From the IMG/VR virus record IMGVR_UViG_3300017716_001697, positions 1 to 64,000 of that record: a stretch of 64,000 nt of DNA. The stretch is one strand, 5' to 3'. Origin of the DNA: a virus. Lineage: Duplodnaviria; Caudoviricetes. Under the pieces are notes generated by a model. It was not told the DNA's origin. It was given only the letters and a program-made list of their open reading frames with translations, and did not search any database. Below are positions 2,627-33,780 of this stretch, piece after piece. A program made the position numbers and the translations under genes. Positions within the stretch are counted from its first letter, which is position 1. Every line of letters begins with the position of its first letter.

Positions 2627-3135
2627 TTGACACTACATATAGTTGATGTTACATTAGCTGCTTGATACATTGTTTTATGGTGATGCAGATAGACTTTAAA
2701 GGCAACCCCCTGAATACATTGAAGGTTGACACCTATCTAAAACGATGTTACATTAGTAGCTTGATACAAATTATGTAGGACACTATAACAAAACATTAGC
2801 TACCGCTAATTTGCAACAGTATATTATGGTGATGCACTAAATAGACACGGTGCGTGAGACGATAAAGAAGACGGTTGACACCTATCTAACGCACTGTTAT
2901 AATGAGATTATAGATACAGAGTTTTTATGCGGAATGTATGCTACCGTGTAGAAGTAAATGAAAAGAGAGCATATCGATCATGTCTACTCTGTATCTTACT
3001 AGTTTTGGTGTGTTTGACAACGTTTTTTAATGTTGTTACAATACAAGATGATAAATAAAAGTGTAGACAAGAATATATCTGTTTCTTAGAAGATTACTTG
3101 AATAACTTGACAGATTACTATACTACTGTTAAACT
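2627..3135 (+). promoter_or_regulatory. Array of five sigma70-type promoters
   Basis: TTGACA-N17-(TACATT/TACATT/TATAAT/TACAAT/TAAACT) at 2627, 2726, 2875, 3014, 3107. Confidence 0.8.
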
Positions 3136-3301
3136 TGCTACATAGGTTAAAAGATATTGCGTTATGCAAGTTAGTTGCTACCGGTTTTTAATTAAACAGG
3201 AAGGGCTAGCCGCTTAACTACCGCATTATTTTATGCAGATGATAAATAAACTTACACAAATAGGTTTTTGTGTATTAATTTGGAATTAATTGGAAAATAA
3301 A

Positions 3302-3472
3302 ATGGTTGACTTTACATTATCGAAACAGAATGCAATTACAGGACTCTCGTCCCGCATGCATTGTGCTGGATATTGGGTCGAGACAACTACATTGGGTAAT
3401 GCGTCAGGCTTTAATAGTATTGAACAAGATCCGATGAACACGGCTTCCTTCTATAAGGGGTCTGGAAACTAA
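3302..3472 (+). CDS. Putative attenuator leader peptide (start ambiguous: 3290, 3302 or 3356)
   Basis: Short ORF whose 3' end overlaps the antiterminator strand; contains all 20 amino acids. Confidence 0.6.
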   Translation: MVDFTLSKQNAITGLSSRMHCAGYWVETTTLGNASGFNSIEQDPMNTASFYKGSGN

Positions 3473-3529
3473 CAAAAGTAACCAGATATTTTATAAAAGG
3501 AAGCCGCTAGGAAACTAAGCGGCTTTTTT
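3441..3529 (+). terminator. Terminator/antiterminator pair upstream of the tRNA array
   Basis: Hairpin AAGCCGCT(AG-GAAA-CT-A)AGCGGCTT plus T-run; 3441-3456 complementary to 3491-3506 at 15 of 16 positions. Confidence 0.8.
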
Positions 3530-4863: not shown

Positions 4864-5100
4864 ATGGAATTAATAGGATGGATAGGCAGCGGCCTTTTAG
4901 CTCTATGCGCAATTCCACTAGCATGGGAGTGTTTTAAACAGAAACACGCTAATGGAATTTCAAATATGTTTATTGCAATGTGGATGCTAGGTGAATTATT
5001 AACCTTTGCTTACATACTGCCTAAACAAGATTACCCACTATTGCTTAATTACAGTTTAAACATTATATGTTTATTGGTTGTGATTAGGTACAAATTTTAA
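4864..5100 (+). CDS. PQ-loop/SemiSWEET-like small membrane protein
   Basis: Three hydrophobic helices; IGWIG...IPLAW...GIS...LLLNY pattern. Confidence 0.65.
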   Translation: MELIGWIGSGLLALCAIPLAWECFKQKHANGISNMFIAMWMLGELLTFAYILPKQDYPLLLNYSLNIICLLVVIRYKF

Positions 5101-10021: not shown

Positions 10022-10176
10022 CGCGAGATAAAGACCGTTTGGGACGGGGACCGGATTGTTGACCGGCGTCGGATAAAGCAACGAGCTGCGGTGACTTATA
10101 GAAGGGCCCTTTTATTTGTTGCTTAAAATTTCAGTACGCTCCGACTTCAGTGGTTCGATTCCACATCTTGCGGCCA
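10022..10176 (+). tRNA. Giant tRNA-Asn(GTT)-like with ~90-nt variable-arm insert
   Basis: Acceptor CGCGAGA/TCTTGCG plus GCCA; loop TTGTTGA; T arm; folded insert. Confidence 0.55.
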
Positions 10177-10180
10177 AATT

Positions 10181-10277
10181 TTGTTTAGTGTAATGGTAGC
10201 ACGGGGAAGTCCGAGACACGGAAGTGGAGTAGGCAATCAAATGCCCTGAGGTGGTTCGATCCCACCAGCAAATTCAA
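10181..10277 (+). pseudogene. tRNA-like element with replaced anticodon arm
   Basis: D arm AGTGTAATGGTAGCAC and T arm GGTGGTTCGATCCCACC; no CCA. Confidence 0.45.
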
Positions 10278-10278
10278 T

Positions 10279-10621
10279 TTCAACATTCGAGCTAACGCTG
10301 GCAACAGAGGAAGTTCGGGACAAGCGCCAAGGGCGTGTGGGAGAGTGGTTATTTGATGGGGCATAGTGTCGGCCGGCTCAAATCTAATACGGAGTTGTTA
10401 GAAGCCAAGCAGAGATTTATCATCAAGCTAGATCCGCAAGGATGACAAAAGGTTCCTGAGACGGGTTCAACTCCCGGATGCTCCACCAAATAACTACTTG
10501 TTACACCACCGTGATACAGCTTGCAACACAAACAGAACCTGGGAACTCTTGGCTTATAGGTTCGGGTTGTGGCAAAGATTAATGTTAGCATAGAACAGAA
10601 TCCCGGCTACGGAATGTTGAA
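10279..10621 (+). ncRNA. rnpB: RNase P RNA (type-A catalytic domain)
   Basis: P1, P2 (GCTAAC/GTTAGC), P3, CR-I GAGGAAGTTCGGG, P5 CAAGC/GCTTG, P6 GCCAAG/CTTGGC, P15-16 with GGT, CR-IV AGATTAAT, CR-V ACAGAATCCCGGCTA. Confidence 0.85.
10358..10488 (+). ncRNA. Ala-acceptor tRNA/tmRNA-like domain nested in the RNase P RNA
   Basis: GGGGCAT/ATGCTCC with G3-U70, ACCA, GAC-GGGTTCAACTCCC T arm. Confidence 0.7.
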
Positions 10622-10813: not shown

Positions 10814-10902
10814 GGGTTGTTAATGGGACGACTTAAGTCGTGTACTATGTATGCGCCGTCAGACCGGTCTTACAGTTGGTTCAAGTCCGACGCAACTCTC
10901 CA
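10814..10902 (+). pseudogene. tRNA-like element, atypical core
   Basis: Acceptor GGGTTGT/GCAACTC, T arm, CCA; no canonical anticodon arm. Confidence 0.45.
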
Positions 10903-11582: not shown

Positions 11583-11801
11583 ATGGCAAGAATTACTTCG
11601 CAGAAAGCGGCAGAAGCCGTTGGTAACAGATTTGATCTAGTGTTGATTGCATCTATTCGTGCAAGGGAATTGAAACGTAACTATGCGCCTAAAATTGTTT
11701 CTACAAACGGACCAATGGTTACGGCTATTAGAGAGATTGAGCAAGGCCTCATTGGGAGAGATTATCTAAAGAAGGTCGGCATTAGATACGAAAAAGAATA
11801 A
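11583..11801 (+). CDS. rpoZ: RNA polymerase omega subunit homologue
   Basis: MARIT...GNRFDLVLIASIRAREL...VTAIREIEQG. Confidence 0.9.
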   Translation: MARITSQKAAEAVGNRFDLVLIASIRARELKRNYAPKIVSTNGPMVTAIREIEQGLIGRDYLKKVGIRYEKE

Positions 11802-12512: not shown

Positions 12513-12611
12513 AGTTTAAGCAGCGCCTGACTGAAACGGGCATCGAGTACGTGGAGCGTGGAAGAAGGTTCAATTCCTTTATACTTAATTTCAGACTGCT
12601 TAATTAAATAC

Positions 12612-15683: not shown

Positions 15684-15717
15684 AAGCTCACTATCGCAAG
15701 GTAGTGGGCTTTTTTTA
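15684..15717 (+). terminator. Rho-independent terminator ending the tRNA array
   Basis: AAGCTCACTATC-GCAA-GGTAGTGGGCTT plus T-run. Confidence 0.8.
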
Positions 15718-15781
15718 TGGCCAATCAAAAATGCATACCTATAGAATTTCTGTGATAAATACGTATATTATAAGAGTACAA

Positions 15782-16558
15782 ATGAAATTACATAAACATA
15801 TTCTACTAGGATTAATTCCTGCACATATATTATTTGCTATACTAGCATATTCTTTACCTATAAATTTTGCTACAATTATTGTAGCAATTTTACTATGGAT
15901 TGTAATAGGCGGAATTGGACTCGATATTGGGCTTCATCGAATCTTATCACATAAACAATTTATAGTTAGTAAGCCACTTGAGCGATTAATTTCATTCTTG
16001 GGTGTACTATCTTTAAATGGCTCACCTATATCGTGGCGAGCATTACATGTAGGATATCACCATCCTTACTCGGACACGCCTAAAGATTTTCACAGTCCTG
16101 TAAACGGCGGATTCTTTAATGCATATGTATTATACATAAACCAGTTAGACAAAATGGTGTTAAGGGGGTGCAAAGAATTACTAAATGACAAGTATCAGGT
16201 ATTCTTCCATGAATATTATTTTACTATTATTTGGTTAATTGTAGCACTCGCCGGATTAATTTCTTTGCCATTGTGCCTGGCATTATTGACTGCAATGATT
16301 ATATCGTTTCATCAGACTGCGATTGTTAATGCTATGTGTCATTATGAACAGTTTGGTTATGCGACATTTGAAACAAAGGATAGATCACGTAATATAAAAT
16401 GGTTGGGATATATTACATTTGGACTGGCATTACATAATAATCATCACATGTATCCGGCCGCTGCGAATTATGCGATGTCGCCCGGTGAATACGATGTGGG
16501 ATACAGACTAGCTAAATTTATAGGGCTTACTGAGAATAAAGATGGTAAATATACTTAA
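15782..16558 (+). CDS. Membrane fatty-acid (acyl-CoA delta-9-like) desaturase
   Basis: His boxes HRILSH, HVGYHH, HNNHH; TM helices. Confidence 0.88.
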   Translation: MKLHKHILLGLIPAHILFAILAYSLPINFATIIVAILLWIVIGGIGLDIGLHRILSHKQFIVSKPLERLISFLGVLSLNGSPISWRALHVGYHHPYSDTPKDFHSPVNGGFFNAYVLYINQLDKMVLRGCKELLNDKYQVFFHEYYFTIIWLIVALAGLISLPLCLALLTAMIISFHQTAIVNAMCHYEQFGYATFETKDRSRNIKWLGYITFGLALHNNHHMYPAAANYAMSPGEYDVGYRLAKFIGLTENKDGKYT

Positions 16559-30052: not shown

Positions 30053-30526
30053 ATGAACAAGATATTCGCACTATCGATTGTTATAAGTTTATTGTGCCAT
30101 ATCGGTGTTGTTATATCTGCGATTACACCGCAAGAACCGATTAGTACTAGTGTTACAGCGCCAGAGAACCGAATGGCAATTAAGCTATTACCACCAGAGC
30201 AGTTAGCAACGATACGACCAGCATTTTTAAAATCTGATGAATATTATAAGCCGACGCACCATCCGTATAGCAAAGAAGGGATTTGTGAAGGCAAGGATAA
30301 GAATTACATCGGTATTGGCATGATGATTCAGCCCGGAACACGGTTGGTAATTAATGTGCCAGAGATGTATCCTGCGTATCGAGCAGGCATTCGGGTAAAT
30401 GATGTCATTGTGGACCCGTACGGTCCTGTAATTGACCGTGCCGGTTATATTGAATTCGGGGTAGAACGGGACAATGTTATATCTCGTGTACGAATCAAGG
30501 CAGAAAAGATATGTTATACTGGATAG
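30053..30526 (+). CDS. Membrane-anchored PDZ-like protein
   Basis: N-terminal hydrophobic segment; PAYRAGIRVNDVI. Confidence 0.55.
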   Translation: MNKIFALSIVISLLCHIGVVISAITPQEPISTSVTAPENRMAIKLLPPEQLATIRPAFLKSDEYYKPTHHPYSKEGICEGKDKNYIGIGMMIQPGTRLVINVPEMYPAYRAGIRVNDVIVDPYGPVIDRAGYIEFGVERDNVISRVRIKAEKICYTG

Positions 30527-30554
30527 TTGACACCTTAACGCTAAGTAGTATAAT
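30527..30554 (+). promoter_or_regulatory. sigma70 promoter of tmRNA
   Basis: TTGACA-N16-TATAAT. Confidence 0.75.
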
Positions 30555-30560
30555 AAAGGT

Positions 30561-30848
30561 ACTGTTGTAATCCCTTCGAAGCGAAGGCAGGCAAGACGCG
30601 GGTTCGAATCCCGCCAGGTCCACCAAAATCATATTCGAAAAATAAAATCCATAACACGTTATGGTGTGAGTATGATTCTGATGGGCCTGCTCCGGAAATC
30701 GATTGCGTGAGATAGTAGAGACGGCAACACGAGAGGCGATGGACGTAATCCAAGCAAAACTAGTAAATGCAAACGCAGATACATTCGCTCTTGTAGCCTA
30801 AGAAACTCAAAGCTGAGGTAGGACTTACCTTATAACCAAAACAACCAA
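30561..30848 (+). ncRNA. ssrA: Circularly permuted two-piece tmRNA
   Basis: Acceptor piece ends GACGCGGGTTCGAATCCCGCCAGGTCCACCA (30625); hairpin spacer; coding piece starts GGGCCTG (30683); tag ANADTFALVA* at 30769-30801. Confidence 0.92.
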
Positions 30849-30849
30849 T

Positions 30850-30872
30850 GGGGGCTTCGGCCCCTATTTTTA
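30850..30872 (+). terminator. Terminator after tmRNA
   Basis: GGGGC-TTCG-GCCCC plus T-run. Confidence 0.85.
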
Positions 30873-33704: not shown

Positions 33705-33780
33705 GCGCCTTTAGCTCAGTTGGTAGAGCAGCGGATTCTAAATCTGTAGGTCAGGGGTTCGAGTCCCCTATCGCGCACCA
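33705..33780 (+). tRNA. Amber-suppressor tRNA (CTA)
   Basis: GCGGA-TTCTAAA-TCTGT anticodon arm; canonical D and T arms; CCA; two acceptor mismatches. Confidence 0.8.

Follow-up and report, generated by a model that had tools for sequence, protein, structure and literature searches.

Bacterial rRNA contains intervening sequences that are excised by RNase III, and tRNAs occur in rRNA spacers; the tRNA cluster of phage T4 encodes species I and II, stable tRNA-like RNAs of 120-140 nt whose function is unknown. In bacterial RNase P RNA (RPR), catalysis and RCCA binding fall to P4 with its bulged U, J5/15, the L15 GGU and J18/2, and pairing of a precursor's leader with its RCCA is an anti-determinant that slows RNase P cleavage by orders of magnitude (PMC10731613). 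Deletion of the S-domain cuts RPR activity ~500-fold in E. coli and up to thousands-fold in B. subtilis (PMC5839562); natural RPRs of archaeal type T do without most of it (PMC3579882). The idealised substrate of E. coli RNase III is a helix of 22 bp; A-U pairs are favoured close to the cleavage site, with AU/UA at positions 2 and 4 of the proximal box (PMC3867540, PMC1540722). Among tmRNA-like RNAs, the one of mycobacteriophage DS6A consists of the tRNA-like domain (TLD) only, and RNAs of this type reportedly act as tmRNA inhibitors, perhaps through titration of SmpB (PMC4131195, PMC11915505).

Here we describe a phage locus whose parts are each of a known kind (a minimal RPR, a TLD-only RNA and a stem-excised insert); the carrier arrangement that joins them would be a new kind of gene arrangement if release and activity hold true. 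A preliminary description had called the fusion without known equivalent, and the searchable literature, with most subscription journals outside its coverage, likewise yielded no phage RNase P RNA family and no RNA gene nested in an RPR.

A minimal RNase P RNA-like gene in a phage tRNA array

The window (the whole stretch analysed here, 64,000 nt) comes from a phage record that is complete at 364.6 kb and has direct terminal repeats; it spans the first 64 kb of that record and holds ~43 tRNA genes. The RPR gene lies inside the tRNA array, flanked by unannotated tRNA-like RNAs and a tRNA-Leu, and is built as follows.

10279-10621, +: minimal RNase P RNA-like gene, limited to the catalytic domain and split by the cargo hairpin (RF00373, covariation)
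10279-10342, +: RPR 5' part (sequence, landmarks, covariation)
10279-10288, +: P1, 5' strand
10291-10296, +: P2, 5' strand, followed by P3
10312-10320, +: P4, 5' strand, with bulged U10314
10321-10325, +: P5, 5' strand
10326-10333, +: P6, 5' strand
10337-10340, +: P7, 5' strand
10500-10621, +: RPR 3' part, including P15 and P16 (sequence, landmarks, covariation)
10506-10509, +: P7, 3' strand
10519-10523, +: P5, 3' strand
10524-10526, +: J5/15, CAA
10546-10553, +: P6, 3' strand
10565-10567, +: L15, GGU
10576-10583, +: J18/2
10584-10589, +: P2, 3' strand
10601-10608, +: P4, 3' strand
10612-10621, +: P1, 3' strand
30513-30870, +: permuted two-piece tmRNA, betaproteobacterial type, tag ANADTFALVA

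Rfam at gathering scores gave no match at the RPR locus. The region aligned end to end with archaeal RNase P RF00373 at 27.8 bits (E 7.4e-6; gathering score 84), leaving 197 nt unaligned mid-way, and scored below the gathering score of RF00010. It was more stable than all shuffles (fold z = -3.1 to -3.2). The window RPR has P1, P2, P3, P4, P5, P6, P7, P15 and P16, so that the P1, P2, P3, P5, P7, P15 scaffold is present together with J5/15 and J18/2 (CR-IV); the S-domain (P8-P14, two T-loops) and P18 are absent from it and from most of its relatives.

Pattern scans for conserved RPR motifs in viral and metagenome contigs recovered a viral family of more than 100 RPR loci, some redundant, which almost always sit in tRNA arrays. 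The shortest members measure ~190-200 nt, with P7 ending in an internal loop and a tetraloop hairpin; longer ones reach 54-60 bits with RF00010. Three longer members (L003, L264, L274; L264 at 60 bits) have an extra hairpin before P7 and are possible intermediates in S-domain loss. In an alignment of 17 short members, with a structure hand-drawn from the same sequences, which favours the fit somewhat, 94.9% of cells were paired and 33 of 50 pairs changed on both sides (shuffles as high, 0 of 500), whereas slid controls were 30-43% paired. All eight P4 pairs were 100% paired in the 17 sequences, with one G-C/C-G swap in three, and every pair of the P6 pseudoknot (7/7) varied on both sides. P4, with its bulged U and conserved flanks (CR-I, CR-V), was invariant or nearly so, as were J5/15, the L15 GGU and J18/2. 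The comparison shows an RPR fold; a catalytic function is probable.

Among 185,579 GTDB genomes, a pattern search found no minimal RPR, its sole match being one canonical RPR; the minimal form looks viral, as far as the motif pattern sees. DLP6 alone matched among the isolated phages searched: this cultured Stenotrophomonas phage has an empty minimal RPR, unannotated, at KU682439.2 ~105785-106019 (L056 2420-2654, +). Canonical-looking type A RPRs with an S-domain occur in two viral contigs of 372 and 497 kb (L318 12704-12882, +, and L372) and could be phage genes or host sequence.

A Pfam search of the phage genome found no RnpA, SmpB or RNase III, which implies host enzymes for these roles and means that the phage RPR would need a host protein; TROVE, CCA/poly(A) polymerase and reverse transcriptase were not found either. 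Scans for promoters and terminators around the RPR gene gave nothing in excess of shuffles. Three more tRNA-like RNAs lie near the RPR (10022-10176, ~10180-10275 and 10814-10902, all +), with acceptor-like stems and T loops, that ARAGORN and RF00005 do not call; those at 10022-10176 and 10814-10902 have CCA ends. The array also encodes a homologue of the RNA polymerase omega subunit (RpoZ/Rpb6; 11583-11801, +; PF01192, E 9.7e-13), and contig L051 has a similar ORF. Elsewhere in the window are a tRNA with a CUA anticodon (33705-33780, +; amber suppressor type, Pyl per ARAGORN), a fatty-acid desaturase (15704-16558, +; PF00487, E 7.8e-16) and a small PQ-loop (SemiSWEET-like) membrane protein (4864-5100, +; PF04193). 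A permuted tmRNA is also present in L008.

A nested tRNA-like element with conserved copies

The 131-nt element in the middle of the RPR, with the arms that close it, comprises the following features.

10343-10357, +: closing helix, 5' arm, doubling as the element's leader; arm core common to L010, L022, L006 and L008
10358-10488, +: tRNA-like RNA, 131 nt, shaped like a tmRNA TLD (RF00023 ends; seven aligned copies)
10358-10364/10478-10484, +: acceptor, 7 bp, with G1-C72, G2-C71 and G3-U70
10377-10380/10457-10460, +: P2-like helix, preceded by a stemless D loop
10383-10402, +: hairpin
10403-10406/10451-10454, +: second helix
10409-10431, +: 23-nt stretch identical in all seven copies (copy alignment)
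10433-10442, +: GCAA hairpin
10462-10465/10473-10476, +: T stem, 4 bp
10466-10472, +: T loop
10485-10488, +: ACCA (A73 and CCA)
10489-10499, +: 3' arm of the closing helix (trailer); pairing starts at C75 = 10487

The helix, U at -1, acceptor with G3-U70, ACCA and T loop that the preliminary description reported are all present at these positions. It had also read a 'tmRNA-style GAC' T arm here; the T loop stands, and the C proved to be a paired base of a covarying 4-bp T stem. The element aligns with both ends of the tmRNA model RF00023 (16.5 bits, versus 47; E 2.7e-4). A canonical cloverleaf (D stem, anticodon arm) is absent, and neither ARAGORN nor RF00005 calls the element.

We found at least seven distinct copies; model R1 (run on ~1 Mb) and four further pattern scans gave none beyond these seven among the matches listed. 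The element is nested at the P7-distal hairpin in the window, L010 and L022, nested at a different hairpin after P15 in L006 and L008, with the same arm core as the P7 copies, and free-standing in tRNA arrays between non-complementary flanks in L013 and L114. The acceptor, G3-U70, A73, CCA and the 23-nt core are invariant in all seven. The T stem covaries among copies (C-G/U-A/G-C), and in the P2-like helix L114 has a compensatory change and L006/L008 have an insertion that is paired; across the seven copies, RNAalifold favours another, non-covarying interior pairing over this covariation-based one. The covalent fusion of RPR and tRNA-like RNA is thus real and conserved, being nested in five phage RPRs. 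Assembly chimerism, which had been raised as an alternative, is rejected by the same nesting in four other contigs (L010, L022, L006, L008), where arm changes keep the helix. These four also bear out the expectation that homologous phage RPRs share the insertion, in part only, as most relatives have a short hairpin.

By sequence, the element carries the E. coli-type alanine identity set (G3-U70, A73, CCA), in keeping with the earlier suggestion that it could be alanylated. With UCGG in place of the UCGA of tmRNA, its D loop leaves SmpB binding uncertain. No mRNA-like domain (resume codon, tag frame, pseudoknots) was found in the element. A mini-tmRNA with a tag is unlikely, there being no conserved coding pattern and the sole invariant stop giving SSS-stop; we know of no tag-bearing tmRNA whose loop is not far longer. 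Neither an antisense role of the 23-mer (best genomic duplex -24.6, versus -21 to -25 for shuffles) nor a Y RNA (YrlA, RF02553: no model match at E up to 10, in a genome without TROVE) found support. Short RNAs that match just the ends of the tmRNA model occur in L006 (5839-5928 and 3081-3180, +) and L030 (8454-8528, -), and TLD-only RNAs may be common in these tRNA arrays.

Exchangeable cargos in the P7-distal slot

We parsed the P7-distal slot in 88 loci, some of which are the same contig from two collections, and found a hairpin of 8-53 nt in 60 and a longer insert in 28. The long inserts (>=55 nt) form ~20 families, mutually unrelated by blastn. Among the cargos scanned, Rfam put a name only to L060 (a tRNA, 42.8 bits) and to a T-arm fragment in L258. 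CCA is missing from several cargos (L014, L030, L241), and T-loop-like motifs occur in a few (L259, L236, L241). The RPR of L013, a contig that has the element free, carries another G3-U70/CCA RNA, of which an exact 20-mer search found no free copy; the RPR of L008 holds two cargos at once. A ~400-nt insert in the slot of L326 (6351-6792, +) has no Rfam match.

Cargos also occur outside RPRs. The L258 cargo has a homologue in the window (blastn 75.5% over 94 nt, E 1.8e-8):

12519-12607, +: free-standing small RNA, structured, with a T loop and a likely pseudoknot (blastn, fold)

RNAs of this family are also free in L012, L015 and L051, and an L033-family cargo occurs free in L261. The RNA at 12519-12607, free here while its homologue is nested in L258, shows the cargos to be normal members of the gene set of these tRNA arrays.

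Cargo changes faster than core: the core of L010 shares 96.5-98% identity with cores whose slot holds a short hairpin or a different cargo, and only 84-86% with those of the window and L022, which hold the same element. Exchange of cassettes through recombination within the conserved flanks would be expected to give such a pattern. The core tree has low resolution; it does not allow insertion events to be counted and does not reject a single origin of the P7 insertion. Because ~20 unrelated RNAs use the same loop and near-identical cores differ in cargo, comparison indicates that the element is an exchangeable passenger of the RPR, neither an S-domain substitute nor a purpose-built self-cutting switch.

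Outer stems measure 19-23 bp in nine of the 16 large cargos (>=90 nt), versus 7-11 bp in free copies of the same RNAs and 2-4 bp in empty RPRs. The other seven large cargos depart from this range, including L351 and L326 (6-7 bp, from the last scan), and the 19-23-bp rule is a tendency, recognized post hoc.

Several minimal RPR genes are interrupted by ORFs (L036 1009-1566, +; L340/L369 ~2800-3480, -; L321/L325/L327; L020). Homing endonuclease PHROGs match the ORF of L340 (E 1e-40), whose C-terminal part is common to L036. Such homing-endonuclease-like ORFs could drive cassette exchange.

The closed precursor and a proposed release route

A 12-bp helix (10344-10355 with 10487-10498, one G-U) closes the element, and G10343-U10499 extends it to 13 bp. 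The 5' arm mirrors ACCA and the trailer as their reverse complement, the exceptions being A at -2 and G-U wobbles, and this match suggests that the arm arose by a fold-back or template-switch event. A retro-insertion route is unsupported in this genome, where the search for a reverse transcriptase was negative.

The leader/trailer duplex is computed at -15.7 kcal/mol, versus -6.9 to +0.4 for the 21 ordinary tRNAs of the window. In the precursor, U10357, at position -1, pairs with A73, as it does in all five nested copies, where the computed probability of being unpaired is <=0.01 at C75, at A76 and from -3 to -8 of the leader; free copies of the element are partly open at the same positions. 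Arms and acceptor together form 21 pairs with one 1x1 mismatch. With leader and RCCA locked in this duplex, the folded precursor is predicted to be a poor RNase P substrate, its leader and CCA sequestered. The 'well-formed substrate' of the preliminary description accordingly applies to the released RNA only, the precursor having U-1, C75, A76 and leader -3 to -8 paired.

We consider cleavage of the precursor by host enzymes likely, probably once a double-strand nuclease has opened the stem. The specific route that we favour, in which host RNase III opens the stem and RNase P trims in trans, freeing an alanylatable RNA and leaving a two-piece ribozyme, stands in our judgement at an even chance. 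It is favoured because the 21-pair helix is near the 22-bp substrate of RNase III and the arm is AU-rich; against it, this AU content equals the intergenic background. A check for RNase III boxes found a G-C followed by three A-U pairs at 10348-10351; with this best proximal register, the matching distal box falls within the internal loop of P7, and a cut site cannot be predicted.

Under the favoured route, the hairpin beyond P7, which comparison of the loci shows to be dispensable, serves as a cassette slot in a minimal RPR, into which a small RNA gene (a tmRNA-TLD-like alanine acceptor) would have been captured along with its inverted-repeat arms. Comparison also shows that cassettes are swapped between phages, which would happen by recombination in the conserved flanks. 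The tRNA array would be transcribed as a long precursor, in which the ~21-bp helix of arms and acceptor, about as long as RNase III requires, would block direct RNase P cleavage. A double-strand nuclease of the host would cut the AU-rich part (~10349-10355 and 10487-10493); RNase P (the host holoenzyme, or the phage RPR with host RnpA) would then trim in trans to G10358, and exonucleases would trim the 3' end to A10488. One product would be the released TLD-like RNA, open to alanylation and with SmpB or ribosome rescue as its probable target; the other, a two-piece RPR held by P1, P2, P4, P5, P7 and the helix stub. The preliminary description foresaw such a two-piece RNA, and the halves do still pair, with a computed association of ~-19 kcal/mol.

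Alternative explanations

It is rather unlikely, in our estimate, that the cargo simply stays attached, as a tolerated passenger or an RNA that works while tethered, with the helix insulating two folds or hiding the cargo ends. The fully paired leader and CCA would suit an unprocessed fusion, as would the cargos without CCA (L014, L030, L241), the short stems of some, and a slot that empty RPRs show to be neutral; however, nested copies hold G3-U70, A73 and CCA invariant, which would be useless if the 3' end were never freed, they retain compensatory T-stem and P2 pairs, and insulation needs no 19-23 bp when empty RPRs manage with 2-4 bp. Release by RNase P alone, acting in trans (host holoenzyme or a second phage RPR) while the AU-rich arm breathes or opens co-transcriptionally, with RNase E and exonucleases afterwards, strikes us as unlikely. 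Leader-RCCA pairing slows RNase P by orders of magnitude (PMC10731613), the duplex at -15.7 kcal/mol far exceeds the -2.4 of RCCA-L15 pairing, and this route would not account for cargos that lack tRNA ends yet have a stem of equal length; these weigh against U-1/G+1, T loop, RCCA and an 11-12-bp acceptor plus T stem that are all optimal (PMC10731613), an A-2 that leaves C74 unpaired in all five nested copies, and C74/C75 unpaired in the independent L013 cargo.

The preliminary description had instead proposed a natural ribozyme-substrate conjugate that cleaves itself in cis and so switches RPR activity. We hold this to be very improbable. The catalytic core is intact and engineered pre-tRNA-RPR conjugates do self-cleave, even without an S-domain, but in those constructs the tRNA is joined to L15 through a spacer of 3-5 nt, and tethering at the 3' end did not work (PMC2475606), whereas here both ends of the element are clamped in a rigid helix, with the scissile bond ~18 bp (~50 A, a geometric estimate) past the P7 base and facing away from P4/J5-15, so that cis cleavage would need helix melting. 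The same cassette occurs at two loops far apart and as a free gene, which tells against any fixed cis geometry; ~20 unrelated RNAs in the slot, several without CCA and swapped between near-identical cores, and a leader-RCCA pairing that is a known anti-determinant (PMC10731613) speak against a dedicated switch. Its other proposal, that the element replaces the missing S-domain by positioning substrate or binding protein, is hardly credible: the element does sit at the S-domain position, and T-loop-like motifs in a few cargos (L259, L236, L241) might be cited for it, but 60 of 88 loci have just the 8-53-nt hairpin, the cargos are mutually unrelated, and the element also sits at a second loop (L006/L008) or outside RPRs altogether. 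Orthogonal to all of these readings, the minimal RPR might be a decoy for host RnpA or a bare cargo scaffold and no tRNA maturase, which we find doubtful. The ~500-fold to thousands-fold loss of activity on S-domain deletion (PMC5839562), the lack of an rnpA match in the phage (Pfam search) and the endonuclease ORFs that interrupt several family members favour it; against it are catalytic elements and a P6 pseudoknot that are invariant or covarying in 17 divergent copies, cargo-free ones included, and the natural S-domain-less RPRs of type T (PMC3579882).

A broader reading, to which we give somewhat less than an even chance, is that jumbo phages encode an active, S-domain-less RNase P ribozyme of ~190 nt whose dispensable loops carry swappable RNA genes on two-turn stems, to be excised post-transcriptionally, the working ribozyme being two-piece. 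If true, a ribozyme would act as a polycistronic carrier of exchangeable RNA genes, a new kind of gene arrangement, and the cargos would make up a catalogue of ~20 undescribed RNAs. The nesting of RNA genes in a ribozyme as exchangeable cassettes is itself shown here, and the literature searched held no account of it. The loci point to a widespread viral RPR family, catalytic domain only, that Rfam cut-offs miss and that is unannotated even in the isolated phage DLP6, and they make an old question testable, namely whether a bacterial-type catalytic domain works in vivo without a specificity domain. The element adds a second natural TLD-only, tmRNA-like phage RNA; it may modulate ribosome rescue in the host of a phage whose genome encodes a tmRNA as well.

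Comparison with known systems

T4 species I and II are alike in size and tRNA-array setting, but are not nested, and the comparison yielded no sequence match in the phage collection. The archaeal type T RPR (PMC3579882) resembles the phage RPR in keeping the catalytic domain and P6 while losing most of the S-domain and P18, in its size of ~200 nt and in being missed by standard Rfam cut-offs. The phage RPR differs in a P2 of 6 bp rather than 3, the absence of P8/P9 in most members, a bacterial-type L15 GGU, variable cargo, the lack of archaeal proteins at hand and its carrier, a phage with a betaproteobacterial-type tmRNA and not a Thermoproteaceae host; the likeness is most likely convergent reduction. 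With bacterial type A (RF00010) it shares P1-P7, P15, P16, the P6 pseudoknot, the bulged U in P4, J5/15, L15 GGU and J18/2, and it lacks the S-domain and P18 and has a J3/4-P4 one A-U pair shorter.

The element comes closest to the TLD-only tmRNA of mycobacteriophage DS6A and to CDS-less organellar tmRNAs (PMC4131195, PMC11915505). By described features, not sequence, it shares with the DS6A type an alanine acceptor, a T arm, a stemless D loop, a P2-like helix, the lack of a tag frame and a normal tmRNA system alongside; it differs in its 131 nt, extra hairpin, invariant 23-nt core, D loop of UCGG rather than UCGA, 4-bp T stem and nesting in an RNA gene. Engineered pre-tRNA-RPR cis conjugates (PMC2475606) likewise join a substrate-like RNA covalently to an S-domain-less RPR, through one short single-stranded tether at L15, whereas here both ends lie in a duplex far from the active site. 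In rRNA intervening sequences, rRNA-spacer tRNAs and permuted tmRNA (PMC11915505), as here, an insert sits on a long stem at a dispensable helix and processing leaves, or here would leave, a base-paired fragmented RNA. Unlike in those systems, the host of the insert at this locus is a ribozyme, the insert is a conserved RNA gene that also exists free, and many unrelated inserts alternate at one site.
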